Source: Nemertoderma westbladi
Lineage: Eukaryota > Animalia > Xenacoelomorpha
Assembly (NCBI GenBank): GCA_032718475.1
Contig: JAUCBJ010006960.1
Span: 1 to 64,000, forward strand
Length of the DNA stretch: 64,000 nt
Direction of reading: 5' to 3'
Both the position numbers and the translations under genes were made by a program. Positions 6,911 through 52,440 of the stretch are shown here, one piece after another; position 1 is the stretch's first letter, and every line of letters starts with the position of its first letter. Under the pieces are notes generated by a model. The model was not told the DNA's origin. It was given only the letters and a program-made list of their open reading frames with translations, and did not search any database.

Positions 6911-6925
6911 TAAACTCATTATAAT

Positions 6926-8470: not shown

Positions 8471-8546
8471 TGTTTAGAGTATTTTTATATTTTAGAAACT
8501 GTGATTTTTATATTTTATATAATTAAATCCCATTTTCTGGGAGCGG

Positions 8547-20222: not shown

Positions 20223-20424
20223 TTTGTGTTCCGTGGATCCAAAAGTACAGATTATCGCGGAGTCAGAAAAGAATTCCACAATGTTATCCTCAACCAACCT
20301 ACCTGGAGTTGCTTAGTAACCCGGTAGTGATGTGGGGCGAATTCGGCGGTGTGATTAAAGAAATACCCCTCCTATCGGATCCAATCCTAATGAAGCTTGA
20401 TAAGGAGAACCTAAGGAATCCAAG
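20223..20424 (+). CDS. SEL1L3: SEL1L3-like exon B
   Basis: TTGCAG| acceptor phase 1, AG|GTTAGA donor phase 2; VCVPWIQKY...RIPQCYPQPTYLELL...GEFGGVIK matches the SEL1L3 C.W...RIPQC...GE.G(I/V).K pattern. Confidence 0.8.
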
Positions 20425-20453
20425 GTTAGATAACCGTCGTGGTAGTAGGATGG

Positions 20454-23400: not shown

Positions 23401-24370
23401 TAAGACGATCGTGTTAGTAAGACGAAGTTCGTGTTTGTAAGACGATCGTGTTAGTAAGACGATCGTGTTAGAAAGACAAAGATCGTGTTAGTAAGACGAA
23501 GTTCGTATTAGTAAGACGATCGTGTTAGTAAGACGATCGTGTTAGTAAGAAGAAGTTCGTGTTAGTAAAACGATCGTGTTAGTAAGACGATCGTGTTAGT
23601 AAGACGAAGTTCTTGTTAGTATGACGATCGTGTCAGTAAGACGAAGTTCGTGTTAGTAAGACGATCGTGTTAGTAAGACGAAGTTCGTGTTAGTAAGACG
23701 ATCGTGTTAGTAAGACAATGATCGTGTTAGTAAGACGATCGTGTTAGTAAGACGAAGTTCGTGTTAGTAAGACGATCGTGTTAGTAAGACGAACGTGTTA
23801 GTAAGACGAAGTTCGTGTTAGTAAGACGATCGTGTTAGTAAGACGATTGTGTTAGTAAGACGATCGTGTTAGTAAGACGATCGTGTTAGTAAGACGAAGT
23901 TCGTGTTAGTAAGACGATCGTGTTAGGAAGACGATCGTGTTAGTAAGAAGATGGTGTTAGTAAGACGAAGTTATTGTTAGTAACACGAAGTTCGTGTTAG
24001 TAAAACGATCGTGTTAGTAAGACGATCGTGTTAGTAAGACGAAGTTCGTGTTAGTAAGACGATCATGTTAGCAAGACGATCGTGTGAGAAAGATAAAGAT
24101 GGTGTTAGTAAGACGAAGTTATTGTTAGTAACACGAAGTTCGTGTTAGTAAAACGATCGTGTTAGTAAGACGATCGTGTTAGTAAGACGAAGTTCGTGTT
24201 AGTAAGACGATCGTGTTAGTAAGACAATGATCGTGTTAGTAAGACGATCGTGTTAGTAAGACGATCGTGTTAGTAAGACAAAGATCGTGTTAGTAAGACA
24301 ATCTTGTTATTAAGACGAAGAATTTGTTAGTAACACAAAGTTTGTGTTAGTAAGACGATCGTGTTAGTAA
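20454..24370 (+). repeat. ~3.9-kb minisatellite of 17-bp (GATCGTGTTAGTAAGAC) and 20-bp (GAAGTTCGTGTTAGTAAGAC) units
   Basis: Directly visible tandem array with recurring variant blocks; it fills most of the intron between exons B and C. Confidence 0.97.
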
Positions 24371-27767: not shown

Positions 27768-29322
27768 TGTTAAGTGCAATCCCAAATCCCCCGAAAGGGC
27801 AGAATTAACCGAGATCAAAACTGAGGGAAAGCTATCGCTATTGCGAGTAAATGTTTTAATTCAATGGTGGAGACCTCAACACCTTTTTTACAGCAGCGCT
27901 CACAATAAGTAAGTTCAATAGATATTTGTCGTTCGATTTTGGCAGGCAGTAAAGGCTAACATATAAAGTACTGTAAAACACCAGCAACCAAAACAATAAA
28001 CCAAACCTATATCAGAATGTACAGCAATTATGGCTGAAAATTCGTAATTCATGCTAGACCAGTAGGCTCTTCTAACTAATCCCAAAACGAGCAAATACTA
28101 ATTTTTTATCTTTCAAAATATGTATAAACAAATAAATAAATTTTATACTTACAACAGTTTGGTTGTCAATCTATACGGAATTTAGGATACTAGGGCTGAG
28201 AAAGAAATAATTAAATGGCCTAACTATTTTACCATCCCAAATGTTCCCTCAGCGCTATAATAACCACCAATTTATCCGTAGGGCCTAAGAATGATCACAA
28301 ACTATCTAAAATAATTATTAGAAAATTAGTAAGTTAGAATTCCTAACGTGTTATGGTAGACCTAGCTACCGGTCTGCCGGTACATGAATTAGAAATCAAT
28401 ATAGGGGCCTCTGAAAACTATAATCTAACCCCTTCACCAATTGGCCTACAGCCTTAGCACTTAGGGGCAATTGATTGACATTTACTAATCCAATTTTAGC
28501 GAGCCCAAACTTATGCCTAATGGTTCGATCAACTTCCCTGATAGTCCAATTTTGCTTCCGTACCGCCACTGATGTCCCACATCCCATTGCCGGCCTCACC
28601 GCACCGCAGCTAATCTTAGCCGGACATCGCGAATGTTTTCGATAATTGACTCATGTCAGAATGCGATCTGATCCGTTAATCAGGAACAACAATGTTATTG
28701 AACGTGTTCTAATCGACTAAGACATTATATTGAATATCGTATCACAGTATCACAGTTTTATATCAAACACATCCAGACATCAGACATCTGAATGCAAAAC
28801 AACACTGTCAAAATTTAAATACACGTCCAAATGTAAAAGATTAAACCATATAACGTACCGGTACTGCGGTACTTAATGCAGTAACAGAGTAAATGAATGA
28901 ATATATATATAACTTCAATTCTACATTGAAACAAGCATAAAAAGAATTCAAAGGCTGTCATTGGCTAATCATGTTTAAAAAGCCTTAATTTGAAAATACC
29001 TCCAGCAGGGCTTAGTTATACTGTACTGTATAATAATAATAATCTGGAAATAATTATAGATACTGGACAATTAACCGACTGGTGATTTATCAGATAATCA
29101 GGTAGTATTTCACATAATGAATCGTACAGTATTTCTACTGCAGTAAGTAAAGGAACTGAAACAAACTTAACTTTAAAGAGAATCCATAAGATTTTCGTTA
29201 ATTAATATAGTAGAATATAGGTATAGAATATAGGTTTTATACTTTAAACGTACAGTAGAAGTTATCGGAACAATATAACGATTATAAAATAAAATTTTTA
29301 TACTCTTACCAAATACAATACA
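27768..29322 (-). repeat. 3' LTR of BEL element 2
   Basis: Near-identical to 39506-41060; preceded on the - strand by the PPT. Confidence 0.95.
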
Positions 29323-30732
29323 CCGCTCCGATCAGACGTTTAACGCTCTGATCCCATCACCGGACATACCGAATAAATCTAAAAACTACTATATAAAATT
29401 ATGTAGAATAAACTAGATTAATCTAAATTTATCAATATTTCAAAAGGACATACAATTGTATAACATACTACCTATAACACAAAGATTTATCTGAATTATT
29501 TCAATTATTACATAAAATATCTAGCATAATAATAGGACTGACTTACACATTTTCTTAAAATATTGTAAGAGTCCGGTTCACTTTTAGTACCTTGTCAGGT
29601 AGTAACTACCTTTTACTAAGGCATAAATAATATAAATCGAATGAGTTAGTGAAATATTTGTTAACATCGTAAATAAATTGAGGCTAATATGTGATTAGGT
29701 AAGCATTTAAGACGGTAAGCATATAAGACGGTAAGCATATAAGACTTATAAAAAAAAAAAAATACCAGTGCGACGATGGTATTGGTTTCCAGGATTTAAA
29801 GGGCGCAGGGTTTGTTGTAGTATTATCTCGTTGACACATCCCAATGTTACAGTAAGAATGACTAGGTTAATATAGGATCGCCCTGAGCATAAGTTCTTCG
29901 CTCTCGATCGCATTAGTTTGATTTGTGTCTGAAATGGGTCAAATATTAGGATCTCAAACCCCGCCCTAATCCTGGTATTGCAATCGGCAGTGACAACGTC
30001 GGTCACATCCAGCCCAATCGCAATTACTTCGCATCGAACGCTCGTATGGGATTTGTGTATTCTGGAATTCTTTGAGTTTCTTACTGTTCCAACTCCGCTG
30101 GTGGCCGGTATCAATGGGAGTTCGGGTAGAACCTTTCATCCCCCCCTCCTTTTCCACTCATCAACCATCAGATGGCGCAATATCTTTTCTGTATCGCCCA
30201 GATATTTCGATCGCATCCACAGTTCAAATCGATGGGGTATGTCAACAGGTTCTTATGCGGTACCATCCTGTAACTAGTAACTTATAGAAAGATTATTGAT
30301 GGATGGATGAATGGCAGGTACAGTATCACAAACTTTCAGCTAAGCCTGGGTTTACCTCCATCAGTTCAGCGTTTGTCAACCAATTGATATTAAATTATCT
30401 TATTCTAGCGCTGACCCCAAATTTTGATATTTGCGAAACAAAATCATTCGCTTTTTTATATTACTATCTAAGAAATTTAGAGAGAAATTATGTCAATAAA
30501 GTGTTAATCAATAAAGAGATATCTTGATTTTGGGATCTGTCTCCCCTTTCTACAAAACATGTTTTAAACATACCCCTTAAGACAGCTACAATACCTGTGC
30601 CAATATATCTGTGAGACCCTTTTTGATAAAATAATTTAATGTTACAGCCTCCAGATGTAGTACTCCAATCTTTTTGACACAAATTTAAAGTTAAATAAAT
30701 CAACTAGTTAAAATTATTTAACTTTTTTGTAA

Positions 30733-30913
30733 ATATATCAGGGAGCGTGTGAGCTGCCTCCCCCTCAATGCCCCCCGGACAGCGCAAGATCCTCAGCGCT
30801 GTTGTACTGTCGCCGCTGTGCCTCTCGCCAACGTCGTAGCTACACAACGACAACAATAACCAGCGCGAGTCACTCCACTGTCCGTCCCAAGGGCTTAGAA
30901 TTACTTCAAATTC
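30733..30913 (-). other. Conserved GC-rich, probably structured cis-element in the BEL 3' region (copy 2)
   Basis: Reverse complement is ~87% identical to 6731-6872; 16 contiguous WC/GU pairs possible (TATTGTTGTCGTTGTG / CACAGCGGCGACAGTA). Confidence 0.75.
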
Positions 30914-31065: not shown

Positions 31066-34000
31066 TTACTTTGTCTTCTTGGAGGTTTTTACATTTCCTA
31101 TCTCATATAATTTGTGGGAAGTATAATCACTGGGTTTTTTAAAGATTTTGTAGTCTCCAGTCTGACAACGTGACTCTTCTAATAAAACGAGATGTTGCAC
31201 TGGTCTAGTTACTACATGTTTGTCTAGTGTTCTAACTGTCACAGTTCGAACTGTTCCGTCTGATCCTGGATGAACTGCTACTACAACACCTGTTAACCAG
31301 TGACGCCGTTTTAGGTTCGCCTCGGCTAAGAGAACAGAATCTCCTTTACAAAGATTCCTTGTTGTTTGATACCATTTACTTCTGGCTGAAATAGTGGGCA
31401 AATAGTGTTGTCGCCATATTTCCCAGAAGTTATCTGCTAACAATTGTACGATTTTCCACGCTTTCCTGGAGTACAGATCGCTGTCATCTGGGACAGAGAT
31501 TGGTACAAGTGGTGCGGGAGATTGCATTAATATATGGTTTGGTGTCAGGGCAATAACGTTGTCTGACCTGTCTGGCACCAGTGCAATCGGTCGAGAATTC
31601 AAAGTATACTCGATCTCTGTGAAAAGAGTCACTAGTTCATCGTCTGTGAGTACTTTGTTCGGTGGGATGGTCTTATGGAACGCCAATTTTATGGATCGTA
31701 TAAGACGCTCCCAGCTACCGCCTCTCCAGGGGCTGTCAGCCGTGTTAAAGTTCCATGTGATACGACTGGGTATTAATTCGGCAGCAATTTTATCATGGTC
31801 AATAGTATTAAGAGATTTATTAATCTCGTTGTCCCCACCGACAAAGTTCGTACCTTGGTCACTATAGAAAGCCTGAACCAACCCGCGTCTGGCTATGAAC
31901 CGACGCAAAGCAAGTAATAAGGCATTTGTGGACATGTCTGTGACGCGTTCAATGTGTACCGCACGGGATGCCATACAAATGAATATGACACCCCAACGTT
32001 TTACCATCGACCGTGCACGCTTTGTGAGGATTGGACCAAAACAATCCAGTCCCGTATGGGTAAATGGTGATTGGTGTGACTGCACTCTAGCTAAGGGTAG
32101 TTCACTCATTTGTTGCTGGGTAATGCGTGCGTTCAACTTTTTACAAACTATACAGTTTGATAGAACTGTATTTAATGCCTTTGTTGGTTTTATTAAGATA
32201 AAACGTTGTCTTAACAAAGAGATGCAATGTGAACGGCCAGCATGTTTCAGCTTCAAGTGAGCATCCCATATCATGGCGCATTGTAATTCTAAGTATGCTG
32301 GGATTATAATTGGATATATGAAGTCTCGTGCTAGGTCTGTAGCTTGTAATCTAGACCTGTGACAAAGGAGTCCTTTGTGTATGGTCGGGCTCAACCTGAC
32401 TAATGGGGAAGAACTAACCGCTTTCTTAATCATAATGGCGTTGTACTCACGGGTGTAACTTCGCAGCTGAAAATGAAGGATGATCTTCAATTCCGCCTGG
32501 TCTATTTCCTCGATAGATAGTCTCCTGGGAAATCCTCTAATAACCCTTTGTCTCCAATCAGATAGTGAGTATTCCTTTGATTTACCCAAGAATTTACTAA
32601 GTCTACTGATCCAAGCGGCTTTCCTACATAGCTTTAGCCAAGATGAACTGGAATTTACTAACCTGACAAAGAAATTCCTTAAATTACTGTTAAGTGGTTG
32701 TGTTACCATAACATTAGGCGGTGGCTGTGATGCCACATTTTTTACAAGATCTTGCTTACTATTGGTCAAGGGTGATTCTAGAAATATCGCTTTTACTTCA
32801 TCGAATTTTTCATCACCAGGAACTGGATGCATGTCAATATATTCATCGTCGTCTGATATATCTAGGGCTAGGTCAACTTCGGACTCAATCTCTAAATTAA
32901 TATCTGAATCTGGCGGATTTGGCGGTGGTAACGACGCAGGAACTATATCACTTGTATGTGTCACTCGCGATCTTAGATTATATAATGTGGTACGGGACGT
33001 AATCTCCTTTCTGTCTAACATCTGTTCACTCATGGCATTTCTCGGCCGCTCCATATAATTATTTGACATTACCTGATCAGTCAATGATGTTGGTATATGG
33101 GATAAACCTGTGGCCTTCGCCTTTGACTTCTTTACTTTCTCGATCTTAATCTCCGCTTCCGGTGGAAGTTTATGTAAGTGGCAGTGAAAGATTGGAGGCC
33201 AATGCTCTGTTGACTTCCTTAAGAATTTGGGTCCATGCAGCCAGAAATCTTGATTATCTGGTTGACAAAACTCCGTCGGCATCATTCCTCGCGAGGCAAT
33301 GTCTGCGGGGTTGCGATCACCCGGACAGTGACGCCAGTCTTCTGTGATAGTAAAATCTAAAATCCCGGCTTTCCGATTTGCAACAAATGTCTTAAATTGT
33401 ACATCATCAATATTTAAGTACATTAATACTAAAGTGGCATCAGTCCAATAGGTTATATGTAAACGTATCCCAATCTCGCGTTTTATGAGTTTCGCAATGG
33501 TTACGCCTATCAAGGCGGCTTGTAGCTCACCCCTCGGTATGTTCATATATTTAATTGGCATAGTTTTAGCTCTAGACGTAATGAGCGATGTCTCAAACTC
33601 ACCTGACTCAGTCTCTCTCCTGAGGTATAAGGCAACTCCTAACCCATTCGAGCTTGCATCACTAAAGCAGTGGAGTTCCAACTCAGTAGGAAAAGTTGTC
33701 TGATCTGGAAAATATAGTCTAGGAAATTCTAATTCCTGCAGAGCTCCCAACTCTGCCTCCCAGAGTCTCCACTTACCTGCATGTTCTGAGGATATTGGCT
33801 CATCCCAACCGATTCCAGTTTGCCAAATGCTACGAAGATATATCCTTGCCTGTAATACAACGGGGCTAATGAGGCACAGCGGGTCGAATAGTCGACTCAT
33901 TGTGGATAGGCATTTCCGCTTAGTCAATGTCTCAGCTGGCGGCAGTACTTGGACACGCACCTGGAAGTTATCATTATTTGGATTCCATCCTAGGCCGAGG

Positions 34001-35037
34001 ACCTTCGATGTGGGGGTATCCTCAAACTCTAGCTCGATGTCGCCGCTCCTCCGATCTTCTGAGGGAAACGAGTTGATTAGTTTGGCTGAGTTAGAAGTAA
34101 ACTTTGTTAACCGGAATCCTCCAGTCTTCAGACACTCCTGTAAGCCATGGGAAATTTTAATTGCTTGCTCCTCGGAATCAAAACAGTCTAACCCATCATC
34201 CATGTAGAAGTTATCACCTACTGCCTCAATTACTTCAGCAGGGAAATGTTCACTTTGTCTTTTTGCAGTTTCTTTCAAAACAAAGAGGGATCCATTTGGG
34301 CTATCTCGTGCTCCAAAAATTCTAACCAACATTTGATATGTGATAGGTTCACCAGACAAGTCGTCATTTGGATACCAAAGGAACCTTAGGCTGTCCTTAT
34401 CTTTCTTTAAGGCAAATACTTGGTGGTACATAGCTTCTATGTCGCATGCAAAAGCGAATCTACGTCTCCTAAAACGAAGCAATATCCCGATCAGGTAATT
34501 ATTTTGATTTGGGCCATCCATAAGCTCAGAGTTGAGCGACATTCCTAAATATTTCCTACGACAATCGTTAACAACTCTAACACGTCCAGGTTTATCAGGG
34601 TGAATGATATAATGATGAGGAAGATAGTATGTCTGATCAGTAGTTCTGTCTGGGTAATCCATTTTCTCAGCATATCCCTTTTCTAAATAATTGTTTATTT
34701 GAAATCGGTATTGCATGTGTATCTTTTCGTCTCGCAACAATCGTGTACGGATAGATTGAAGGCAACGTAAAGCTAGTGGTCGATTATTAATGAGTTTTGG
34801 CTTGTCGTGTCGCAATAGCATTCCTACCTCAAAATGCCCATTTGGTAGGCGATTAATAGTATTTCTCATTATATCAAGGGAACGTTTGTCATTCGCTGAC
34901 ATCGCTATATCGTAGCTACCAGGTTCCATAGCATATTCTTCTAGCCATTTAAGGGTCCGATAATTCATTTCATGATCTTGGTCCATGAGATCACGGATGT
35001 ACTCAATATCTTCAACTTCAGCTGAGGGATTACACAT
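31066..35037 (-). CDS. pol: BEL/Pao pol (RT, RNase H, integrase)
   Basis: YYLPHH, CDIEAMYHQV, FYMDD (RT); HCFSDAS, NPADIASRG (RNase H); H..H..C..C, DCFGP, SDQGTNF, WERLI (integrase); DUF5641-like C-terminus. Confidence 0.95.
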   Translation of the reverse strand: MCNPSAEVEDIEYIRDLMDQDHEMNYRTLKWLEEYAMEPGSYDIAMSANDKRSLDIMRNTINRLPNGHFEVGMLLRHDKPKLINNRPLALRCLQSIRTRLLRDEKIHMQYRFQINNYLEKGYAEKMDYPDRTTDQTYYLPHHYIIHPDKPGRVRVVNDCRRKYLGMSLNSELMDGPNQNNYLIGILLRFRRRRFAFACDIEAMYHQVFALKKDKDSLRFLWYPNDDLSGEPITYQMLVRIFGARDSPNGSLFVLKETAKRQSEHFPAEVIEAVGDNFYMDDGLDCFDSEEQAIKISHGLQECLKTGGFRLTKFTSNSAKLINSFPSEDRRSGDIELEFEDTPTSKVLGLGWNPNNDNFQVRVQVLPPAETLTKRKCLSTMSRLFDPLCLISPVVLQARIYLRSIWQTGIGWDEPISSEHAGKWRLWEAELGALQELEFPRLYFPDQTTFPTELELHCFSDASSNGLGVALYLRRETESGEFETSLITSRAKTMPIKYMNIPRGELQAALIGVTIAKLIKREIGIRLHITYWTDATLVLMYLNIDDVQFKTFVANRKAGILDFTITEDWRHCPGDRNPADIASRGMMPTEFCQPDNQDFWLHGPKFLRKSTEHWPPIFHCHLHKLPPEAEIKIEKVKKSKAKATGLSHIPTSLTDQVMSNNYMERPRNAMSEQMLDRKEITSRTTLYNLRSRVTHTSDIVPASLPPPNPPDSDINLEIESEVDLALDISDDDEYIDMHPVPGDEKFDEVKAIFLESPLTNSKQDLVKNVASQPPPNVMVTQPLNSNLRNFFVRLVNSSSSWLKLCRKAAWISRLSKFLGKSKEYSLSDWRQRVIRGFPRRLSIEEIDQAELKIILHFQLRSYTREYNAIMIKKAVSSSPLVRLSPTIHKGLLCHRSRLQATDLARDFIYPIIIPAYLELQCAMIWDAHLKLKHAGRSHCISLLRQRFILIKPTKALNTVLSNCIVCKKLNARITQQQMSELPLARVQSHQSPFTHTGLDCFGPILTKRARSMVKRWGVIFICMASRAVHIERVTDMSTNALLLALRRFIARRGLVQAFYSDQGTNFVGGDNEINKSLNTIDHDKIAAELIPSRITWNFNTADSPWRGGSWERLIRSIKLAFHKTIPPNKVLTDDELVTLFTEIEYTLNSRPIALVPDRSDNVIALTPNHILMQSPAPLVPISVPDDSDLYSRKAWKIVQLLADNFWEIWRQHYLPTISARSKWYQTTRNLCKGDSVLLAEANLKRRHWLTGVVVAVHPGSDGTVRTVTVRTLDKHVVTRPVQHLVLLEESRCQTGDYKIFKKPSDYTSHKLYEIGNVKTSKKTK

Positions 35038-35090
35038 AACCTTATTGTAGTCTGGTCTACTTAGTACTTCAGTGAAATTCCTAGCATCAC

Positions 35091-38000
35091 TTAAGAATGT
35101 AAAAGCAGTTTCACCACGTATATTACTGTCGTCTTGATCAGAATCCTATATTCTATATCCTTCATTCTGTATCCTATAGAAATATTTCTATAGTTAACAT
35201 TACATTCCGGGATACCTAAACATCCGAAGTATTCTCGTTCTTGTTTGGTCAAAGCAGGCACTCCCCCCAAAAGTCCAGAAAATTCTTTCAAAGCAATGAA
35301 GGATACATTCTTTATTGGTAGTAGACTTTGTTCTGGTAGAGTGTGATGATTTCGTGGTAATAAGGAATCTAATGAGAGGTTTATCGATTTACCATTTAGT
35401 TCTCCTTGTCCATGTATAGATCCTAAATCGATCCTACGGCTCTTCGCACTCAAAGTGTCCGTAACAGCGCTGGCTACTTCTAAATCTACATAGCTATGGG
35501 TAGAGGCAGGATCTAGTATGACATAAATTCTCTTCGTTCCATGTTCTCCAATAATCTTAATGGGAATTACGCTAAATGAAGCAGATTGTACTGCTGTAAG
35601 GTATGTATTTGCACATATGATGTCATCAATATTAGTGGCATCAGTATCTCCTACCTGACACTCATCCTTTTCATCATCCTCATCTGAAGAACCGGATTGA
35701 TCAGCATTGACTGAAGCAAATGTAACCTTATTTGGGATTGGGTTAGGATTTCTAGCAATCCTACTTGGATGGTCCATGATATATTGTTTTGTAGGAGTGT
35801 GCTGACTAGTATGTAGCAACCGATGATGCAACCTACCACAATCTTGGCATCCTTTCTTTATGGTGTCTGGACATTCTCGGCGTTTATGACCAGTGGAAAG
35901 ACACTTCCAGCATGCATCTAAAGATCGTATTGCCAGTCTTCTCTTATCGACGTCGAGTTTTGTAAAGAAATCGCAACAATGCAATTTATGATCCATATGT
36001 TTTTGAGATTGCTGATAACAATATTGGCAACCGCGAAAGTTGGAGGGTAGCTCCTGACGCTCCAGGGTCACTCCTATGGGGGCTGAAACTTTACTCTTCT
36101 CCAATTGGTATCGCGATTTTGATATATTCGAGTCAGTCCCAGTTGGTCCTAAAGTGTTGTAGGTTAGACACATCCCCTCTGTTGTCATCAAGGATTTAGG
36201 TTTTGCTATTGAGCGCCTTTCAACCTGTAAATATTCTTCAGAGTAATTTGAACGGGAATCTGCGAGTGCTTTTCTAGCGATTAACTCATGTAAGTGTCGT
36301 AACTTTAAAGTCTCTCCACGTTCTTCTATTTTGCTCTCTAATTTCCGCCACTTTTGACGGTGACGGTAACTTAATCTTCTAATTATATCTTTCAAGATGT
36401 CTGGTCTATCTCCATAGTTTTCACAACCAATATCCGGTAATATTGATATTGCATTCTTTATTTCATCCGCTAGTTTTAATAATTCATGAGATGTAGAAAT
36501 AGGACCACCTTTTCCAAGTTCATCTACAATGGATTGAGCCACCCTGGTGTTACTTCCATATACAGAGGTTAATCGCTCATAAGTATGCTGAAATGCATTT
36601 GGGTTTCCTGTAAAAGTCTCAGCTAACCCTCTAGGTTCCTTCTGTAGTAGTTGTAACAGGTAATTGAATTTCTCATTTGAACTGAAATCCTTTTCTTTTA
36701 TTTGGGAGTCAACATAATTTATAAAGGTGCGCCAATGTTTTGCATTACCATTAAAACATGGAGGTTGTTGGGTTGGCAGACTCTGGCGAGCAGCAAAGCG
36801 AGCAATTTCGGTAAGGACAGCCGTAGTCTCTGTCTGTTTTTCCTTCTCCTTCACCAAACTAGATTTATTTCCTCTTTGAAATTCTCCACAGAAACTGCTA
36901 GAAGAGCTCTCAACAACCTCGGAATATAAATTTTGATGTGGGGTTGAACGACGCTGTGCATACGTCGAATTGAAGTGAATCTTCTTTGACAAACTTGGCT
37001 CTCTAACTGGATTTTGTGATATTTCCTCCATTTCTGAATCAGTTTTTAAGTTTCTCCGGACTGGTGTGTCCATCCAATCAACTTTTTCTTGAACTTCCTT
37101 CAGTTGTTGTAGTAAAGGTGCATTGCATTCTTGCATAGCAGCTTTCATTTGCTCAATTGAAACCTTCGGTTCTATGGGAGTCTCAAAATCAAATAGATCG
37201 AACTTATCGGCTCTGTGTGAATGTTCCCAATTCTGTGAGTAGGGCTCATCGCCACCAGTTCTATACCTCTCCCGAGATCTATTACCATAATGATACCAAG
37301 GATTCTGGGGAAGTAGATATCTTTCCCTACAAACGAAACATGGGCAATCTCTTTCATGAGGCTGTGGTCTGTGCTCGCCCTCACATTGCCAACGTTTGTC
37401 TACAAATTTGTTTGGGGTATACAGCGGTTGGAAGGGTTTCTCGTATGGCTTTGTCTCAGGCTTCCTCACTATGTTCTGGTTTAGTCGAGGAATGGGTCGT
37501 TCTTGGTGAACTTCTTGTGCTATCCTGCCCTTATGCAATGACGATACATATGCTTCTGTTAGAGGGAACCTTCTTTGGGCGGACTCACATATGATTGGAG
37601 CTTCCTCCACTTGGTCTATAATACTACTGTGCTCTTCTTCATACTGCTGCCTATCATTTACCAACTCAAGCCGTGCATCCTGCAACTGAGCTCGCTTATG
37701 TTCCATTTCAATCTCATGGATACGCCTTCGTTGCTTTAATTCTAATTCTCTCCGCTTTTCGTCAACTTGTGCGCGTCTCTGTGCATGTTGATGCTCTAAA
37801 TTTGCCGCTGCTTCACGCTGTTGCCTCTGCAATTCATCACGCAAATGCTCTGCTTCTTGGGCTGCAGCTTGTGCTTCACGCCTAAATTTAGCTGCTGCTT
37901 CCTCATGCCGAAGTTTAGCTTCTTCTGATTCCAGCTGCTCTTGCTGCTTTAAATCTGCTTCTTGTGCTGCTAATTTATGTATCTCCTCTTCAGCGAGTTC

Positions 38001-38789
38001 AACTTCCTGCCTATGCGCTTCCTCTACTTCGAGCTTTCTCTCTTCAACTGCAATTAGTCTATCTCGTTCTGTGAACGCTCGCAGGGCCTTTTGTGATTCT
38101 GTTATCGAACTCCGACTACGTACTACACTCGTACTTCGTCGCGACCTTGTTGTGCTTTGGCTGGCAACAGATAAAACTTCCGCTCCACTGTTTAACCCAC
38201 TCACTGTCTCTTGGTTTGCAGTTAATGGCAATGGTAATCCAATGATAACTACTCCTCTCTTACTTAAATAACGGGTTAATTTAGTAACTCGATGCTGAGT
38301 CTCAACCACAATACGTTCCTCTGATTCTCTAAACTCGACTTCATTGACTGTTAGAGATTCACAAACTGCTTCGCTCCATCGTGTATTACGAATTTGGGAA
38401 AAGTGTTCAATTACTCTTATATAACTCACTCTTGCCTTTTTCAATTTCTCGAATAAGAAAGTCAGGGTTTTATTCTCTTGATATTTTTCTGCTCTATCCA
38501 CAAGAGCTTGTAGTTCAGCTACTGGATGGATCATCTGGGTGTTAAACTTACCTTGTAACTCCAAAAGTTGTTGTCTGTCTAATGTAGCACCCTCTTGTAA
38601 TAATAATGTAATCACCTTGTTTGTGCACTTTGTAATTTGTGCCATATACCCACCAGCACTCCTACTTATCGGTGGCCCTCTTTGTGAATCTAAACTACTT
38701 ACTCTCACCACCTCCTCTATTTCGTCATCGTTTGAGTCAGAACCTACTAGAGTTATGTCCTGTATAGTCGATGTCCTATGTATACTCAT
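35091..38789 (-). CDS. gag: BEL/Pao gag-protease (protease C-terminal half damaged)
   Basis: Coiled-coil N-terminal region, FNGNAKHWRTF (DUF1759-like), three zinc knuckles, protease ILDPAS; the expected ILIG...GW segment is missing. Confidence 0.9.
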   Translation of the reverse strand: MSIHRTSTIQDITLVGSDSNDDEIEEVVRVSSLDSQRGPPISRSAGGYMAQITKCTNKVITLLLQEGATLDRQQLLELQGKFNTQMIHPVAELQALVDRAEKYQENKTLTFLFEKLKKARVSYIRVIEHFSQIRNTRWSEAVCESLTVNEVEFRESEERIVVETQHRVTKLTRYLSKRGVVIIGLPLPLTANQETVSGLNSGAEVLSVASQSTTRSRRSTSVVRSRSSITESQKALRAFTERDRLIAVEERKLEVEEAHRQEVELAEEEIHKLAAQEADLKQQEQLESEEAKLRHEEAAAKFRREAQAAAQEAEHLRDELQRQQREAAANLEHQHAQRRAQVDEKRRELELKQRRRIHEIEMEHKRAQLQDARLELVNDRQQYEEEHSSIIDQVEEAPIICESAQRRFPLTEAYVSSLHKGRIAQEVHQERPIPRLNQNIVRKPETKPYEKPFQPLYTPNKFVDKRWQCEGEHRPQPHERDCPCFVCRERYLLPQNPWYHYGNRSRERYRTGGDEPYSQNWEHSHRADKFDLFDFETPIEPKVSIEQMKAAMQECNAPLLQQLKEVQEKVDWMDTPVRRNLKTDSEMEEISQNPVREPSLSKKIHFNSTYAQRRSTPHQNLYSEVVESSSSSFCGEFQRGNKSSLVKEKEKQTETTAVLTEIARFAARQSLPTQQPPCFNGNAKHWRTFINYVDSQIKEKDFSSNEKFNYLLQLLQKEPRGLAETFTGNPNAFQHTYERLTSVYGSNTRVAQSIVDELGKGGPISTSHELLKLADEIKNAISILPDIGCENYGDRPDILKDIIRRLSYRHRQKWRKLESKIEERGETLKLRHLHELIARKALADSRSNYSEEYLQVERRSIAKPKSLMTTEGMCLTYNTLGPTGTDSNISKSRYQLEKSKVSAPIGVTLERQELPSNFRGCQYCYQQSQKHMDHKLHCCDFFTKLDVDKRRLAIRSLDACWKCLSTGHKRRECPDTIKKGCQDCGRLHHRLLHTSQHTPTKQYIMDHPSRIARNPNPIPNKVTFASVNADQSGSSDEDDEKDECQVGDTDATNIDDIICANTYLTAVQSASFSVIPIKIIGEHGTKRIYVILDPASTHSYVDLEVASAVTDTLSAKSRRIDLGSIHGQGELNGKSINLSLDSLLPRNHHTLPEQSLLPIKNVSFIALKEFSGLLGGVPALTKQEREYFGCLGIPECNVNYRNISIGYRMKDIEYRILIKTTVIYVVKLLLHS

Positions 38790-39493
38790 GGTCGGTAAAT
38801 TTTAATTCTGTATTTCTGTATAACCTTCCGGTCAGTATATATCTAAATATATTTTCTAATTTTACTTGAAGTTGTGCTGCTCCTACAGCGGTAAACTTTC
38901 TAAAATATTTTTAATATTTCCTTCAAATATTATATTTTTTATACACAAATATAATAGGCGTAACGGTTTCCCGGCACGACAAAGATGTGGAGTTCTAAAA
39001 ACATAGTGGACAAACTGGAAGCATTTAAATAAATCATAAAATTAACTTGCCGCAAAACTTTCACAGGTCTCACAGACACAGAGATACAGGTAATGCAACT
39101 AACCCCAGGAGCGTTTCAATTTTCCTCGCGTCCCAATCTGAGCTGCAGATTTTCATTCTGCGAACTTCTTTTTGTACCAAACTCGTAAACATCAACAGAT
39201 CCCAGAATCAGTTGGAAAGTCTCCCTCTGTACCTGAAAGTCGTATAGAAACTTTAAACGGCGCCTACTAATTTTATTTCCTGCAAATAAACTTTAAATTT
39301 AAATTTTTAACCTTTTTTGGCTACCAAATATCTATTCAACCTCCTTTACATAATTTTGGAGCTGATATTTTAATTTTAGAAAATATTTTGTATTTCTGCA
39401 AAACGGAATAATTACAGAAAGACTGATTATTTTCTAAAAATGTTATTTGCTAAGTATTTTGTAAATCAGCTGGGATTTACAGCTTTGATTTTT

Positions 39494-39506
39494 TATATTG
39501 ATTTCT
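39494..39506 (-). promoter_or_regulatory. Primer-binding-site position, complementary to LTR-internal sequence 40129-40141 (putative self-priming site)
   Basis: + strand TATATTGATTTCT (39494-39506) is the exact reverse complement of AGAAATCAATATA (40129-40141); no TGG on the element strand until 39326. Confidence 0.6.
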
Positions 39507-41060
39507 GTTAAGTGCAATCCCAAATCCCCCAAAAGGGCAGAATTAACCGAGATCAAAACTGAGGGAAAGCTATCGCTATTGCGAGTAAATGTTTTAATTC
39601 AATGGTGGAGACCTCAACACCTTTTTTACAGCAGCGCTCACAATAAGTAAGTTCAATAGATATTTGTCGTTCGATTTTGGCAGGCAGTAAAGGCTAACAT
39701 ATAAAGTACTGTAAAACACCAGCAACCAAAACAATAAACCAAACCTATATCAGAATGTACAGCAATTATGGCTGAAAATTCGTAATTCATGCTAGACCAG
39801 TAGGCTCTTCTAACTAATCCCAAAACGAGCAAATACTAATTTTTTATCTTTCAAAATATGTATAAACAAATAAATAAATTTTATACTTACAACAGTTTGG
39901 TTGTCAATCTATACGGAATTTAGGATACTAGGGCTGAGAAAGAAATAATTAAATGGCCTAACTATTTTACCATCCCAAATGTTCCCTCAGCGCTATAATA
40001 ACCACCAATTTATCCGTAGGGCCTAAGAATGATCACAAACTATCTAAAATAATTATTAGAAAATTAGTAAGTTAGAATTCCTAACGTGTTATGGTAGACC
40101 TAGCTACCGGTCTGCCGGTACATGAATTAGAAATCAATATAGGGGCCTCTGAAAACTATAATCTAACCCCTTCACCAATTGGCCTACAGCCTTAGCACTT
40201 AGGGGCAATTGATTGACATTTACTAATCCAATTTTAGCGAGCCCAAACTTATGCCTAATGGTTCGATCAACTTCCCTGATAGTCCAATTTTGCTTCCGTA
40301 CCGCCACTGATGTCCCACATCCCATTGCCGGCCTCACCGCACCGCAGCTAATCTTAGCCGGACATCGCGAATGTTTTCGATAATTGACTCATGTCAGAAT
40401 GCGATCTGATCCGTTAATCAGGAACAACAATGTTATTGAACGTGTTCTAATCGACTAAGACATTATATTGAATATCGTATCACAGTATCACAGTTTTATA
40501 TCAAACACATCCAGACATCAGACATCTGAATGCAAAACAACACTGTCAAAATTTAAATACACGTCCAAATGTAAAAGATTAAACCATATAACGTACCGGT
40601 ACTGCGGTACTTAATGCAGTAACAGAGTAAATGAATGAATATATATATAACTTCAATTCTACATTGAAACAAGCATAAAAAGAATTCAAAGGCTGTCATT
40701 GGCTAATCATGTTTAAAAAGCCTTAATTTGAAAATACCTCCAGCAGGGCTTAGTTATACTGTACTGTATAATAATAATAATCTGGAAATAATTATAGATA
40801 CTGGACAATTAACCGACTGGTGATTTATCATATAATCAGGTAGTATTTCACATAATGAATCGTACAGTATTTCTACTGCAGTAAGTAAAGGAACTGAAAC
40901 AAACTTAACTTTAAAGAGAATCCATAAGATTTTCGTTAATTAATATAGTAGAATATAGGTATAGAATATAGGTTTTATACTTTAAACGTACAGTAGAAGT
41001 TATCGGAACAATATAACGATTATAAAATAAAATTTTTATACTCTTACCAAATACAATACA
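39506..41060 (-). repeat. 5' LTR of BEL element 2
   Basis: Near-identical to 27768-29322; lies upstream of gag on the - strand. Confidence 0.95.
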
Positions 41061-41806
41061 GGTTTACTGTGGAAGAACACCCATGGTGTTGAACAGGCAT
41101 TCCTTTGGGAAACGTAGTGGAAGGGTTTACTGTGGAAGATCACCCATGGTGGTGAACAGGCATTCCTTTAGGAAACAGAGTGGAAGGGTTTACTGTGGAA
41201 GATCACCCATGGTGGTGAACAGGTATTACTTTAGGAAACAGAGTGGAAGGGTTTACTGTGGAAGATCACCAATGGTGGTGAACAGGCATTCCTTTAGGAA
41301 ATAGAGTGGAAGGGTTTACTGTGGAAGATCACCCATTGTGGTGAACTGGCATTCCTTTAGGAAACATAGTGGGAGGGTTTACTGTGGAAGATCACCCATT
41401 GTGGTAAACAGGCATTCCTTTAGGAAACAGAGTGGAAGGGTTTACTATGGAAGATCACCCATGGTGGGGAGCAGGTATTCCTTTAGGAAAAAGAGTGGAA
41501 GGGTTTACTGTGGAAGATCACCCATTGTGGTGAACAGGCATTCCTTTAGGAAACAGAGTAGAAGGGTTTACTTTGGAAGATCACCCATTGCGGTGTACAG
41601 ACATTCCTTTGTGAAACAGAGTGGAAGGGTTTACTGTGGAAGATCATCCATGGTGATGAACAGGTATTCCTTTAGGAAACAGAGTGGAAGGGTTCACTGT
41701 GGAAGATCACCCATTGTGGTGAACAGGCATTCCTTTGGGAAACAGAGTGCAAGGGTTTACTGTGGAAGATCACCCATTGTGGTGAACAGGCATTCCTTTA
41801 GGAAAC
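41061..41806 (+). repeat. 63-bp satellite, right part
   Basis: The same unit resumes in register after the TSD. Confidence 0.95.
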
Positions 41807-41868
41807 TATTGTAAACTATTCATTTAGGTAGCTATTGTAACTATTGAAGAATGTTTATTTACATTTAG

Positions 41869-45630: not shown

Positions 45631-46852
45631 AAAATGAGTGTTTTCCTACGTCATATGTTAATCGATTATCGACAACAACCATAAACTATTAAATTTAGAG
45701 TCTTTTACCACAGGCGCATATGGAAATCTATCTCATGGCCTATAAATCATGGAATTTTGAATGTTTTGCCACAATTATTGTAAATTAAACTGTCTGAAAG
45801 TCAAGAAATCAACAAATTTTGAATGTTTTGGCACAGGCATAGTGAAATCAACTGTCCGACAGTCCATCAGAAATCAACAAATTTTTATTTTTTTGGCATA
45901 GGCATGTTGAAATCAACTGTCTGACAGTCCAGAAATCAGCAGTCGGACAGTTTAAAGAAATACATACATAAAAAGTCATTAAAGGGACAACAAAAGTCAT
46001 TATGCACAATTCGTAAAAAAAAGGCGGACAAAAAAAGTCAAACAAACCATAAAAAATCACTGCCTAATTAAAATGTAGTGCCGGATGCCTGTTGTTTTAT
46101 GTACTTTTTGTTTAATGCAGTTTAATAATGTAGCTAGGCCTACATAAATTTGGCCAACTTATATCTTAACAGTCTGCCTTTAGTATGTAGACATTCTTTA
46201 AATATCTAGGTAGAGTTTAATTAATATCTGAATAATAAACGGATGATAAAAAATGTGGAACAAAATATGACGCAAATGTAATATTGATATATCTTGGCAT
46301 AGGTGGCTTGGAAGAGAATGAAGAACACTACCTATAACAATAGGCTTATGTATCATTAATGTATTATAAATAATATAAGATACATGAGGTATACTATCTC
46401 TAGTATAATAGTACAGTAGAACCAAATCTTCTTTATTACAGCAGTTCTATACATAAAGTTTACAACATATCTTTTTAATATTGTTTCAGGTAGGCGTAGT
46501 TGAGAATAAATTTTAGGACGTCAGAAAATTTAAAACAATCTAAACTAAATTGTAAATGAATTATACTGTATCAACTTATTGTACCCTTTCTAAAATAACA
46601 TTTACTGGCCATTTTTGGAGATATTTTTGACCCACCCTCTTCATCGTCACAAAATGGCTACCACCGATAAGGGTGGGGGTGGCAAGACGCAATTTTCTCC
46701 CCCCTTTACCTATCACCCCCCCCCCCCCCCCCCCCCCCCACTCACACACACAGCCTCCTCTGAAAGTTTTGGTCATTGTCCTGGCTTTGACAGTACAATG
46801 CACCCCACACTTTCTGAGGGCCTCTACCAGGTTCTGACATTACCCTCCCCCT

Positions 46853-47368
46853 CGACGGATACCATCCTGGACGGATATTGCACTGCCACGGACGGATACC
46901 GCCACAGACGGATACCGCCACAGACGGATACCGCCACAGACGGATACCGCCACAGACGGATACCGCCACAGACGGATACCGCCATGGACAGATACCGCCA
47001 TGGACAGATACCACCACATACAGATACTGCCATGGACAGATACCACCAGATACTGCCATGGACAGATACCACCACGGATAGACACTGCCACGCACGGATA
47101 CTGCCACAGACGGATACCGCCACAGACGGATACCGCCATGGACAGATACCGCCATGGACAGATACCACCACATACAGATACTGCCATGGACAGATACCAC
47201 CAGATACTGCCATGGACAGATACCACCACGGATAGACACTGCCACGCACGGATACTGCCACAGACGGATACTGCCACGAACGGATACCACCATGGACGGA
47301 TACTGCCACATATGGATACTGCACTGCCATGGACGGATACTGGCAGTATCCGTCCATGGCAGTGCAGT
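46853..47368 (+). repeat. 17-bp minisatellite (CACAGACGGATACCGCC variants) ending in a perfect palindrome
   Basis: Visible array; 25-bp arms 47318-47342 / 47344-47368; more units at ~47935-48020. Confidence 0.9.
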
Positions 47369-48148
47369 CATTATTGCAGCTGTTATTTGCATCCGTTTTC
47401 CCCTGGAGATGGTTGAATTTTGATTGCGTCTAAAAGCATTTTTGTTATTTATATAAATGTAGCGGAAATCCGGAAATCCGTACCAAAGGTTTTATATCAC
47501 TTTCAAAATAAAGTTATATTTACAAGTGTTTGATAAACCTCTATCAATGACAATCAATCGGCCGAACTCAACCATCTCTGATAACTAAGGAAAAAAAGGT
47601 GACAATTTCATTGATATGTTGATTTATAATAATTATATTACCATTGCCGTCATCTGTGTTTCTACTTTTTAACTTACTTTGATCTCTCCCTGTCATTTAA
47701 TACAGTGACGTTTCTCAATAGGCCATTATAAGGTTAATTAAATATTATGTTTACTATCCTTTTTTTTAAAGATAATATCAATTCAGTTTTTCACTTTTTT
47801 TGTAACTTTTATTTACAGTATCCGATCCTTTTGTCCTTCTTTTGAACTGCATCCTGTCCTTTTTTTCCTTTTTTTTTTGAAAATATAAATTCCTTTTTTC
47901 CTTTTTTTCATCTATTTTTTTGGCTGGGAGGGCTGTACTGCCACGAACGGATACTGCCACAGACAGATACCACCATGGACGGATACTGCCATACAGACAG
48001 ATACCGCCACAGACGGATATACTGTAGCTTTTGTCTTCTTTTATAAACCGTATTTTTTAGTAGACTTTATCTTATGATTAATTTAATTTAGTTTAGCAAT
48101 TTAGCTCTTCATTTTGCAATCCAAGTGTTTAGAGATTTTTGTCAGAGG

Positions 48149-49036
48149 ATGCATAGACGAAGATTTAGTTTGTCTGACAGGTCAAGCAACTTCGAACGCT
48201 TAGGATTTACAAGGAAATATATCAGTCTGCTATTTTGGCACACATTTCTCTTGACATCCTTGACACCACTGGCCCGAATTTGGAGTGGTCAGTGGTTCGC
48301 GGTAACATCACTCGGACTAATGCCAGCCTATCCAAAGCCAGACGAAAACCCTACTGCAGACCGCGCATTTGGTATCCATGCATTTTTCGCTATAATGTGG
48401 TTGCTGTGTGCCTACATTCAGATAGTGCACACGACTGCTACAAAATTCCACAGAACATTTGGATATATCACTGTAATAGCGTACATGCTACATGTTGCAG
48501 GAGCAATCAATACTCTTATAACTGATATCGAGCATCACACGATCCTCAACAAATTCATGTTATTCTCTTCCATTTATCGGTCCACTACATTGGTGGTACA
48601 CGGAGTATATTGCGCCATTTCTGGGAGACTTACCAAACACAAACATTGTCTTGCCCAAGCCTTCATATGGTCATTAGAAGGAGCTGGAAGTGTTCGAACC
48701 ATATCATCCATACAAGTTATATTTGGCTTTGGGCCGGTGTTTTGCGAATGTGAATTTAAAAGTGTTGGAGATCATTGTGATTGGTCATATACATGGAGGA
48801 TGTGCTGGACAGCATTATTAACGTTTCTACTTCGTACCGTTTACATTTTAGCTCAGAAAGAACCATCTTTGTCAAGAGAATTATACCAGGATTCACTGGG
48901 GTACATATGGCGGCTTCTCGTTTTAATCAGCTGTTTCGCATTAGGTTGGAGTCAAACAGATGCTTTAATATTGTTTATTGTATTATTAGGCATATCGTCA
49001 TTAATAGTGGCTTATTCATCCACTAATAAAGGGTAA
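48149..49036 (+). CDS. Intronless multi-pass membrane protein, DUF2306-like (copy 1)
   Basis: First ATG at 48149 (295 aa); 7-8 hydrophobic segments; membrane histidines FGIHAFF, FHRTFGY, MLHVAG, KHKH; AATAAA motifs around and after the stop. Confidence 0.7.
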   Translation: MHRRRFSLSDRSSNFERLGFTRKYISLLFWHTFLLTSLTPLARIWSGQWFAVTSLGLMPAYPKPDENPTADRAFGIHAFFAIMWLLCAYIQIVHTTATKFHRTFGYITVIAYMLHVAGAINTLITDIEHHTILNKFMLFSSIYRSTTLVVHGVYCAISGRLTKHKHCLAQAFIWSLEGAGSVRTISSIQVIFGFGPVFCECEFKSVGDHCDWSYTWRMCWTALLTFLLRTVYILAQKEPSLSRELYQDSLGYIWRLLVLISCFALGWSQTDALILFIVLLGISSLIVAYSSTNKG

Positions 49037-49133
49037 TGATTTTTCTACTTTAAAATACATTTTATTGAAAAATAATTGCGGTAGATAAATAGATAAAAAA
49101 TTCATATAAATATAAATAAAACAAAAGTGATCT

Positions 49134-49232
49134 ATAAATGGGAACAAGGCAACTTGTTAAACAGAGTGGATCACCCATGGTGATGAAAAGGCATTACTTG
49201 GCTTAACGAGCCTAAAAGATTCTTCCATCCAA
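49134..49232 (+). mobile_element. Truncated 3' fragment of the SINE family seen at 56672
   Basis: TAAATGGGAACAAGGCAACTTG...TTGGCTTAACGAGCCTAAAAGATTCT; duplicated at ~62452-62550. Confidence 0.7.
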
Positions 49233-49837
49233 TAATTAAATTTTTATTTAATATCAAGCTTGGCAAGTAAAATCTATACCAGGAGGTATATTGTATTTAC
49301 AGTACATACTGTGATGTTTCTGTTATTGTATCAATATTATGCTATCAATTGTATAACATTTTCGCATTTCAAATATTACATATATGCAAAATTATTTTCG
49401 ATATATACATATATATTTTCTTGTACATATGCAAAATTATTTTCGATATATACATATATATATTCTTTATATTATGTATTTAGTTCTATTTAATATGTTT
49501 TTATTCTGTCAGTATTCGTTGTGCTATCACTATGTGGGCAATTCCATGGAAAAATGGAATTCCAGGGAAAAATGGAATTCCATAAGGGAAAGACATTTTC
49601 ATCCATTTTTACGCCGTTTTTTTGCATTGAAATCTATAAAGATGAAATTGTCTGTTTAAATTTTGTCAATCTGTTAATTAACAATTTGCGAGAAATGCTA
49701 TGTATGGATTTTGAAAAATGATTTTTGTTTGCAGTGTTTTCGAGGTCATCTACTAGAACATACGGTATTATCTCAATTTCAAAAATAATTATATTTGCCT
49801 TAGGCCAGATAGGGTGTATGTGTCCATACATACCCTC

Positions 49838-51125
49838 TACTACTAGGATCGGCATGCTGCATTGCAGCCGCATTTTTAAGAATGCTGTGCCGGCTTGTCA
49901 ACAAAATTGCACCGCCACAACTCCCTATCACCCATGACATTTGCTAGATCATCCGCATCTTTAAGGCCAGTGTCCTTTAAGATGCGTCTCAAGAAAGTCA
50001 TGGGCTGTCCACCATGCTTATTCACTCCATGAGGCTGCCAAAGTACAAGATTATGCACTGGCTGGTCCTCACGGCGAAAGCAATGTCCTGCAAAGCGGAG
50101 GCGATTTTGTTCTAGTGTCAAGCTTGGGGGAACCAATGAGATACCTCCAATGTTATATAGTGTCTGGTTGGAGATGTGTGCATTGTACTTGACACAATGA
50201 ACCCGGCGTAGCATTCTTGTGAATGTGCCATCCAGAGATTTGGTGTCCTCAGCAGTTAGAGCCCAGCATGGACTCCCGTAGAGGAGTACTGGAACAACTG
50301 CTGCTCTAAATAATCGGACCTTAAGTTTCCGATTAATTCTCGGTGACTTCCAAATCCTGGAAAGCCTATTCAAGGCTGCCCATGCCTTTCCCTTACATAT
50401 TCGAAGGTCCTCACCTGACTTCCGGATCCATGATCCCAGGTAACAGAAGTCGTCCACATGCTCAAGCATACCATCCTTTGAGCTTATGCTCATCCGATCA
50501 GAGACTTGCTGAGGACTTTTCAAAGTTAAAAGTCAGAATTTTGGTCTTTCTGGAGTTAATAAAAAGACCAACACTAGAAGCAGCATGTTCTAATGAGCTG
50601 AGGAGCCGTTGGGCTCCCTCTAATGATTCTGAGAGTACTCCTAAGTCATCAGCAAAGTCTAGATCAGTTAGGTACTTGGCAGGATTTCCTCGACTTCTGG
50701 AGCCAGTAGGTGGAGTTATCATCACCCCATCATCATTATAATGATCTAAGGACTTGCGTAGAACATAGTCAACCACAATAATGAACAAGAATGGTGCAAG
50801 TGTGTCTCCTTGGAGGACCCCCCATAACACTACAAATGGTTCTGTGTCACCATCAACAGTAGACACAAATGTTGTCGAACCATCGTATACTGATCTGATT
50901 GCTGCAATAATTTCATCAGGAAACCCATATAATGAAAGTATGCTGAACATACGTGAGCGAGAGACTGAATCAAAGGCCTTGAAGAAGTCAACAAAGATAA
51001 CAGCCAGATGCCTGTCTTTCTTTTTTGATAACTCTTCAATTATCCTTCTAAGTGCCAAAATGGGCTCCATGGTCCCACGACCTTTACGGAACCCATTCTG
51101 ATTTCCACGGAGCAGTCTCTCAACA
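49838..51125 (-). mobile_element. 5'-truncated RTE-like LINE (RT and C-terminal domain, frameshifted)
   Basis: FVDFFKAFDSV, GVLQGDTLAPFLF, LDFADD, FCYLGS, LLYGSPCW, RLRFAGHC; (TAG)n tail. Confidence 0.9.
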
Positions 51126-51499: not shown

Positions 51500-52440
51500 C
51501 GATCTCTGCAGCACCAGTAAGCCACAATAACCCTATAGAGTGGCTAACCAACACGAGGCCCTTATAGCGGCAGATGGAAGGAACCACCCAGTAGAAGCCC
51601 TAAATTTGGACCAATAACAGTCAAGGTGGGACGTACATACAACAAGAGGTGGGGTGCAATACTGCTTTGTTATACCAGTAGAGTGGTCGCTCTTGAGGTG
51701 GTAAGAAACGCCAGTGCAGATGCATCTGCACTGCAGATGCACTGAGTAGGTTTATAAGAAACCATGGAGGGATAAAGAAGTTAAGTTCCGATAATGGAGG
51801 AAACTTAATAGGAACAAATGAGGGACTTAAAACATTATATCAATACGCGCAGACACCAGAGGTAAAAGCGACGGCAATGCGGAATGGAATAGAGTGGAAA
51901 TTCCATACAACTTATGTGCCACACTCATTCGGGGTGTGTGAGTGATTAATAGGGTCAGCCAAGCGACAAATAATAGCAGTAACCATGAACAGATGCCTTA
52001 ACGAGGATAACCTAGCACCAATATTCGCAGAGACAGCGGCGACAATGAATAGTAGACCTCTGTGCGCGCAAAGTGATGATCAGAATTCATACGAAGTAAT
52101 TACACCCAGTCACCTACTGTTACAACGGGAACTATTTCATGACAGAGATAATTACATTAAAAGGATGTGGAAAGGATATTCTGGAAGAGATGGGTAAAGG
52201 AGTACCTCCCCACTCTATACAAGAGACAGAAGTGGCGTATAGAGAAACGAGACCTGCTAGTCAATGATGCAGTCATAGTGACGGACGACACATTGAAGAA
52301 GTTCGACTTGATCTTAGCCAGAGTGGTCAGTACAAAGACCGAGAAAGACAAAACGTCAGAACAGTCGACCTAAGGACAGTGAATAGTGGTAAGAAAACCA
52401 TTCTAAGACCAAAAAAAATGATGTTTATTGGAACAGTAAA
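51500..52440 (+). pseudogene. Degenerate BEL/Pao integrase fragment
   Basis: SDNGGNLIG, MNSRPL, TPSHLLL, FWKRWVKEYLPTL...RQKW, with stops and frameshifts. Confidence 0.8.

Follow-up and report, generated by a model that had tools for sequence, protein, structure and literature searches.

Self-priming of the Tf1 type involves a stem-loop formed between U5 and the leader, and within the BEL group the Cer7 element of C. elegans has been proposed to supply its own primer in the form of a tRNA-like sequence encoded near its 3' end. Tf1 primes reverse transcription with its first 11 bases after a cut by RNase H (PMC7175516), and the initial annotation of this DNA likewise stated that Tf1 uses the first ~11 nt of its own mRNA. 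Self-priming has been described for Tf1, Tf2 and Tj1 (PMC7175516, PMC5341516, PMC4600332) and predicted for Tcn1 and the plant Copia TAR lineage (PMC6317226), where elements qualified if a complement of 10 nt or more began 0-5 nt downstream of the 5' LTR; the passages on self-priming in PMC6934838, PMC3601003 and PMC5443660 name cases from the Gypsy group only. The ICTV profile of the Belpaoviridae describes tRNA-primed elements with LTRs of 0.2-1.2 kb and an 18-nt primer-binding site (PBS) for tRNA-Arg or tRNA-Gly, and calls their replication poorly understood (PMC8742986). The relevant part of PMC8220671 mentions the PBS only in general terms, and the main texts of four BEL/Pao surveys (PMC554778, PMC3118150, PMC6238403 and PMC8556966) mention neither a PBS nor tRNA. 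We found no report of BEL/Pao self-priming or of a split primer in the open literature (subscription papers, Repbase and GyDB entries and supplements lay outside the scope of the search), and the initial annotation likewise knew of no described case in this superfamily.

The element considered here, referred to as element 2, lies on the minus strand of the window, by which we mean the whole stretch of 64,000 nt of Nemertoderma westbladi DNA that was analysed (Table 1). It is a young BEL/Pao retrotransposon with LTRs that are 99.9% identical. We assign it to BEL/Pao because the matches to DUF1759 in ORF1 and to Peptidase_A17 and DUF5641 in ORF2 exceed the Pfam cut-offs (those to rve and Integrase_H2C2 in ORF2 were weak and below cut-off), and it also shows the TG...CA LTRs, the short target-site duplication and the position of the integrase after RT-RNase H that characterise BEL/Pao elements. 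The two ORFs overlap by 55 nt in different frames, which represents either a programmed shift or a lesion. A protein search produced 610 matches, and among the 120 listed the top ones were BEL/Pao polyproteins with no more than 41% identity, PF05380 was present in all 120, and the named matches came mostly from molluscs, echinoderms, cnidarians and fish, a distribution that is only suggestive as regards membership of the Sailor or Suzu clade of BEL/Pao. The 63-bp tandem array hosting element 2 (about 25100-27767 and 41061-41850) is very deep in all four of the DNA runs used below.

Like the Tas type of Belpaoviridae, element 2 has an LTR-gag-pol-LTR layout with one or two overlapping ORFs and the integrase after RNase H, and it differs from the ICTV profile in the length of its LTRs (1.55 kb) and in the absence of a TGG site (PMC8742986), which was found in only 1 of the 15 related families that we scored. 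The 18-nt PBS for tRNA-Arg or tRNA-Gly is likewise missing from element 2, and we read the missing tRNA PBS as a gap in the profile because BEL/Pao membership rests on proteins.

Table 1. Features of element 2, with positions given for the whole window
Feature	Position	Strand	Remarks
5' LTR	39506..41060	-	1555 bp, TG...CA; 2 mismatches to the 3' LTR
3' LTR	27768..29322	-	1555 bp
Target-site duplication, 5 bp	41061..41065 (other copy 27763-27767)	-	Within the 63-bp tandem array
Non-tRNA primer-binding site (PBS)	39494..39505	-	Adjoins the 5' LTR; the X3 run lists no change there
Putative self-primer, PBS complement	40129..40141	-	11 nt common to the major alleles, 12-13 nt in the window copy; 40130 polymorphic
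3'-LTR copy of the putative self-primer	28391..28403	-	String match
Segment 5' of the primer with predicted pairing to leader 39486-39472 (duplex extension)	40152..40170	-	-14.0 kcal/mol
Leader segment with three competing partners	39470..39486	-	Upstream LTR segment, U5 or a local 7-bp hairpin (39480-39461)
U5 segment of the proposed U5-leader stem	39513..39523	-	Present; conservation unsupported
Poly(A) hexamer, the sole one in the LTR	39593..39598	-	Downstream of the primer; consensus match only
ORF1: gag (DUF1759) and probable protease	35091..38801	-	1236 aa, stop to stop
ORF2: RT-RNase H (Peptidase_A17), integrase, DUF5641	31066..35145	-	1359 aa
Short purine-rich tract, probable PPT	29323..29329	-	Before the 3' LTR
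3'-UTR segment, predicted long hairpin	30753..30908	-	88% identity to element 1 6736-6890

The window also contains element 1 (14-8550), which has a BEL gag-protease ORF (2358-5306) and an extra ORF without a Pfam match (7081-7770) and lacks most of pol. Its 5' end appears to harbour a nested Gypsy-type pol (14-2101), for which a probable 3' LTR lies at about 2180-2411, and the probable 3' LTR of element 1 itself begins near 8548, preceded by the 7-nt purine-rich tract also seen in element 2. The two elements share a 156-bp 3'-UTR segment (6736-6890, plus strand, and 30908-30753, minus strand) with 88% identity while their gags are ~25% identical, and this is predicted to fold into a long rod of 48 pairs with none broken, nine one-sided changes and no two-sided changes. 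No Rfam match was obtained for this segment, which may be a packaging signal or the product of a recent exchange; across the window there was no Rfam match at the gathering score, and the four matches in the 3' UTR were all far below threshold. Other features of the window are a 4.4-kb duplication with 98% identity (46328-50728 and 59660-64000) containing short tandem repeats, a LINE-like RT fragment and a 314-aa ORF that has no Pfam match, a decayed BEL integrase (51605-52355), and a long array of 17/20-bp tandem repeats at about 20400-24200.

The initial annotation had proposed that element 2 primes itself, and the strings on which it drew are all found in place (the two copies of the LTR motif, 40141-40129 and 28403-28391, the PBS at 39505-39494, the U5 string at 39523-39513 and the leader string at 39481-39470), as is the absence of a TGG-type tRNA site directly after the 5' LTR. 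The 12 nt following the 5' LTR are complementary to LTR positions 40141-40130. When the LTR was dinucleotide-shuffled 5000 times, 6 shuffles contained a 12-nt complement at offset 0, 53 contained one of at least 12 nt at offsets 0-5, and 140 contained one of at least 11 nt at these offsets, and the complement in element 2 alone is real yet modest (shuffle p 0.001-0.03). Element 2 has no tRNA PBS, and its own LTR contains a complement of 10 nt or more with pairing that begins 0-5 nt after the LTR, the criterion applied in predicting self-priming in plants, and in this it is similar to Tf1/Tf2/Tj1, Tf1/sushi and Tcn1, which are described as having no tRNA PBS and an ~11-nt LTR complement beside the 5' LTR (PMC7175516, PMC4600332, PMC5341516). 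A primer built by splicing within its own LTR would reach at most 9 nt, below the contiguous 12 nt, and no spliced alternative in element 2 scores higher. An acceptor-like site 7 nt upstream of the primer motif fails the strict splice filter and was left unused, and no tRNA was found within the window.

We looked for relatives of element 2 by scanning metagenome contigs, and grouped the best 80 of 475 confirmed loci into 54 families at 85% identity (scans of viral contigs found no relative). Fifteen families in which the 5' LTR end could be fixed from paired LTR copies were scored, leaving 39 without a mapped LTR end. Perfect complements of 10-15 nt within the family's own LTR, differing in sequence, were found in 13 of the 15, and one of 12 nt including one G-U pair in L062, such that the layout is kept with different letters in 14 of the 15 relatives, with pairing that starts 0-5 nt after the LTR. 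The remaining family, L024, has the sole TGG-type site among those scored and no complement (score 4). The initial annotation had expected compensatory changes between the PBS and the LTR motif in sister families, and complementarity is indeed maintained: with a relaxed filter (Watson-Crick pairs only, at least 10 nt at offsets 0-5) it was present in 14 of 16 families, i.e. element 2 and 13 of the 15 relatives, compared with 17 of 3200 decoys, which were windows from the same elements. Only 1 of the 200 decoys belonging to element 2 scored as high as its own complement. With the strict splice filter and one G-U pair allowed, 13 of 16 matched LTR/PBS pairs reached at least 10 nt compared with 9 of 220 mismatched pairs. 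It should be noted that the acceptor filter was loosened from 9 to 7 pyrimidines after L042 and L043 had failed the strict version. When splicing was disallowed, 4 of 16 families reached at least 10 nt, and the complement is contiguous in the window element and in L046, L059 and L019 (10-12 nt in these relatives).

Five of the relatives have one PBS core in common, and the 16 families therefore represent about 10 independent primer types; within this group the letters of exon 1 track the tail of the PBS. A change on each side of the pairing separates the sister families L059 and L019. A de novo scan of 46 other loci, made without a control and kept outside the counts given above, produced 10-15-nt candidates in eight (five spliced and three contiguous) and nothing in 25, with nine lacking upstream DNA and four rows being end-of-string artefacts. 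A spliced layout was also seen by eye in L010. We note that the LTRs of L017, L046 and L019 end in TA rather than CA.

In 11 of the 15 relatives the complement is found only across a GT-AG junction: this applies to the perfect 10-15-nt complements of L003, L017, L038, L042, L043, L045, L048, L054, L067 and L035, and to that of L062. The predicted introns of these 11 families are 71-409 nt long with consensus-like donors, YAG acceptors and, in every case, a T content above that of the flanks, and the predicted junction joins 4-9 nt of the first exon to 5-7 nt of the next. The AG-TT starts of partial complements had been considered as initiator sites, a reading that was dropped because taking them as splice acceptors extended the matches from 6-9 to 10-15 nt. 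Neither the 80 loci nor the window yielded a DNA copy of any of these 11 families that lacked the intron.

A quick IQ-TREE analysis of 53 RT-RNase H rows (L044/L054 and L053/L055 were left out, and no outgroup was used) placed element 2 on a long branch (1.42, with identities of no more than 40%) nearest to the intron families L045 and L043, though without strong support. At least three changes between the intron and contiguous states are needed among the 14 labelled rows of this unrooted tree, which does not distinguish gain from loss, and a single clade of the four contiguous families was rejected (AU p 1.6e-75). Occasional copying of a spliced 3' LTR into DNA would account for the presence of intron-less families on several branches. 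The primer complement is a trait of the lineage and not of element 2 alone. In the same tree L024 (TGG site at L024:406-425) sits among the self-complementary families and beside long branches, which is either a return to tRNA priming or a misplacement.

Folding predictions bear on where the primer would lie in the transcript. Across the 15 families, pairing between the 30 nt that precede the primer and the 30 nt that follow the PBS is stronger than in mismatched combinations (mean -12.5 vs -10.3 kcal/mol, permutation p 0.004), and the control window 30 nt farther upstream showed no enriched pairing with the leader (p 0.67). This pairing is uneven, with shuffle p <0.05 in 4 of the 15 families including element 2, where the value for 40170-40152 (Table 1) is equalled by 2 of 28 mismatched pairs (shuffle p 0.03) and the pairing is weakly populated in long folds. 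The initial annotation had proposed a stem between U5 and the leader that loops out the PBS, and here the two strings are present and capable of pairing, with the stem appearing in a fold of 96 nt, but this fold is matched by 55 of 200 shuffles (z -0.55), the probability of the stem is 0.01 or less in longer folds, and U5-leader pairing is not enriched across the relatives (p 0.66). The leader segment in question is the same one that pairs with 40170-40152.

The primer-PBS helix is present in both the MFE and centroid folds of 40200-39440, with a probability of 0.69-0.85 for the window allele and of 0.09-0.13 for the other allele at 40130, which leaves 11 AU-rich pairs (for both alleles, folds of >700 nt are weak evidence either way). 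Five families, element 2 among them, have TATA-type matches at 115-359 nt upstream of the primer and the other ten have none, and L045 has a further TATA box 31 nt before the primer that fits a 5'-terminal primer; in 13 of the 15 families the primer is followed by a poly(A) hexamer, and in one the hexamer is upstream (all of these are consensus matches only). In element 2 the primer lies in what is likely to be the transcribed R region, because the sole poly(A) hexamer of the LTR is downstream of it, and its distance to the LTR end is 624 nt as against 74-252 nt in the relatives. Transcription probably starts upstream of 40141, since the sequence 5' of the primer is predicted to pair with the leader, and taken together the upstream-leader pairing, the TATA positions and the poly(A) hexamers favour a primer inside the transcript over one at its 5' end.

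Variation within the species was assessed from four DNA runs (X1-X4) of the same organism, representing at most three samples from three studies. At 40130, the twelfth pairing base, another letter accounts for 940.9 of 940.9 depth in X2, 387.9 of 446.2 in X3, 21.4 of 21.4 in X4 and 0 of 432.5 in X1, and so dominates two of the three samples. As the X3 run lists no change in the PBS that would compensate for this, only 11 pairs are common to the major alleles, and adjacency of the pairing to the LTR end is not fixed. The claim that the twelfth base pairs with the first base after the LTR is thus true of the window copy but does not extend to the other allele at 40130 or to the relatives, where pairing may begin anywhere 0-5 nt after the LTR. 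The window base at 40130 may be the older state, because both of the diverged X3 contigs covering the primer motif list no change there; each differs at 40138, where a G-U pair results, and in one of them (depth 25.8) a core pair at 40136 is broken as well. Runs X6-X8 contributed nothing over 39440-40200, which does not prove that the sequence is absent from them. LTR depth is ~2x or more the internal depth in X1-X3. Diverged contigs in X1 (depth 17) and X3 (26.6) omit 999 bp of the LTR (39962-40962) including the primer motif, and probably represent an old deleted copy.

We consider it likely that element 2 primes reverse transcription with 11-12 nt of its own LTR RNA in place of a tRNA, and tRNA-independent self-priming in BEL/Pao, as predicted from sequence, gains support from the covariation in the relatives. 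Transcription would begin within the LTR, probably upstream of 40141, and the segment 40141-40131/40130 would fold back in cis over ~625 nt onto the PBS, with a duplex that the flanking sequences lengthen towards the leader. Cleavage at the segment's 3' end, by analogy with Tf1 by the RNase H of the element, would free a 3'-OH from which RT could copy U5 and the portion of R below the cut before jumping to the 3' LTR, whose copy would serve to restore the sequence upstream of the cut. Most relatives would acquire the primer only once the host spliceosome had removed the intron from the 5' LTR copy, and the intron would persist when the 3' copy escapes splicing, with an intron-less LTR resulting otherwise; element 2 would have a ready-made primer, as expected of an intron-less LTR. 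Self-priming is likely to be a lineage-wide BEL/Pao trait, with element 2 as an intron-less form, though the transfer from the relatives to element 2 is an extrapolation because of its 624-nt primer distance and long RT branch. More broadly, we regard it as on balance probable that in a widespread animal BEL/Pao lineage a primer from the element's own transcript replaces tRNA, that the host spliceosome assembles this primer in most families and so licenses reverse transcription, and that intron-less families occur on several branches.

Were element 2 identical to Tf1, as the initial annotation had it, transcription would start at about 40141, the first 11-12 nt of the mRNA would be the primer, and the U5-leader stem would assist. 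The shared core of 11 nt has the length of the Tf1 primer, the helix would still form with a 5' end at 40141 (probability 0.69), and the nearer TATA box of L045 is suitably placed, but the interval 25-35 nt upstream of 40141 contains no TATA-type match (the closest lies at 359 nt) and the 11 relatives with complements spanning a predicted junction would require a first exon of 4-9 nt. This and the enrichment of upstream-leader pairing and not of the U5-leader stem make a start at about 40141 doubtful, and we judge a Tf1-identical arrangement unlikely. Priming might also occur in trans, if a short LTR-only transcript (spliced in the intron families) or a small RNA derived from it annealed to the PBS of a separate genomic RNA. 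The same covariation would be predicted, the 625-nt loop would be unnecessary, and LTR templates are abundant given the depth of the LTR relative to the internal region; the genomic RNA could also stay unspliced, which would explain how introns persist in 11 families. Folding in cis, however, is predicted for the window copy and has a precedent in Tf1, and we think priming in trans quite improbable.

Two further explanations do without self-priming. The pairing might be a regulatory or structural switch that masks the PBS or controls translation or packaging after splicing, with a host RNA such as a tRNA half as the real primer, and half-tRNA primers are indeed described for Copia lineages (PMC6317226) and one PBS core is shared by five relatives. 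It is difficult to reconcile this with some 10 unrelated PBS sequences that each match their own LTR, with a helix whose end is in every case 0-5 nt from the end of the LTR, the point at which priming has to begin, and with the lack of pairing in the TGG family L024, and we hold it to be very unlikely. We give the least credence to the match in element 2 being a chance event or a decaying relic in an element that uses some other priming route, which seems highly improbable: the LTRs are nearly identical, the relatives have the same layout, a TGG site is missing and no spliced alternative scores higher, even though the single-element p is 0.01-0.03 at offsets 0-5, the LTR is long and AT-rich, and the twelfth pair is lost in most copies in two samples.

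Self-priming from the LTR would make element 2 act like Tf1, probably without the geometry of Tf1. Tf1/sushi and Tcn1 are Ty3/Gypsy chromoviruses, and element 2, with its BEL/Pao domains, is not a member of Tf1/sushi; it further differs from Tf1 in the position of its primer, which is probably internal and not at the 5' end of the RNA, in the absence of a conserved U5-leader stem, and in the predicted intron that splits the primer in 11 of its 15 relatives. Cer7 is similar in being a BEL-group element with a proposed primer of its own, though it would use a tRNA-like sequence where element 2 would use an LTR segment. The TAR lineage of Ty1/Copia (Houba, Osr-1) shows the same sequence criterion and is likewise a prediction, but belongs to another superfamily and host kingdom, and a split primer is not mentioned in the description of TAR in PMC6317226. 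If the reading that we prefer is true, BEL/Pao would be a third LTR superfamily with self-priming besides Gypsy and Copia, and would have a form unlike that of Tf1 with an internal primer often built by splicing. The predicted splice junctions are exact and can be checked in existing RNA-seq. Self-priming of this kind would tie retrotransposon replication to host splicing and free these elements from control through tRNA fragments, and it would explain why PBS-based annotation overlooks them.
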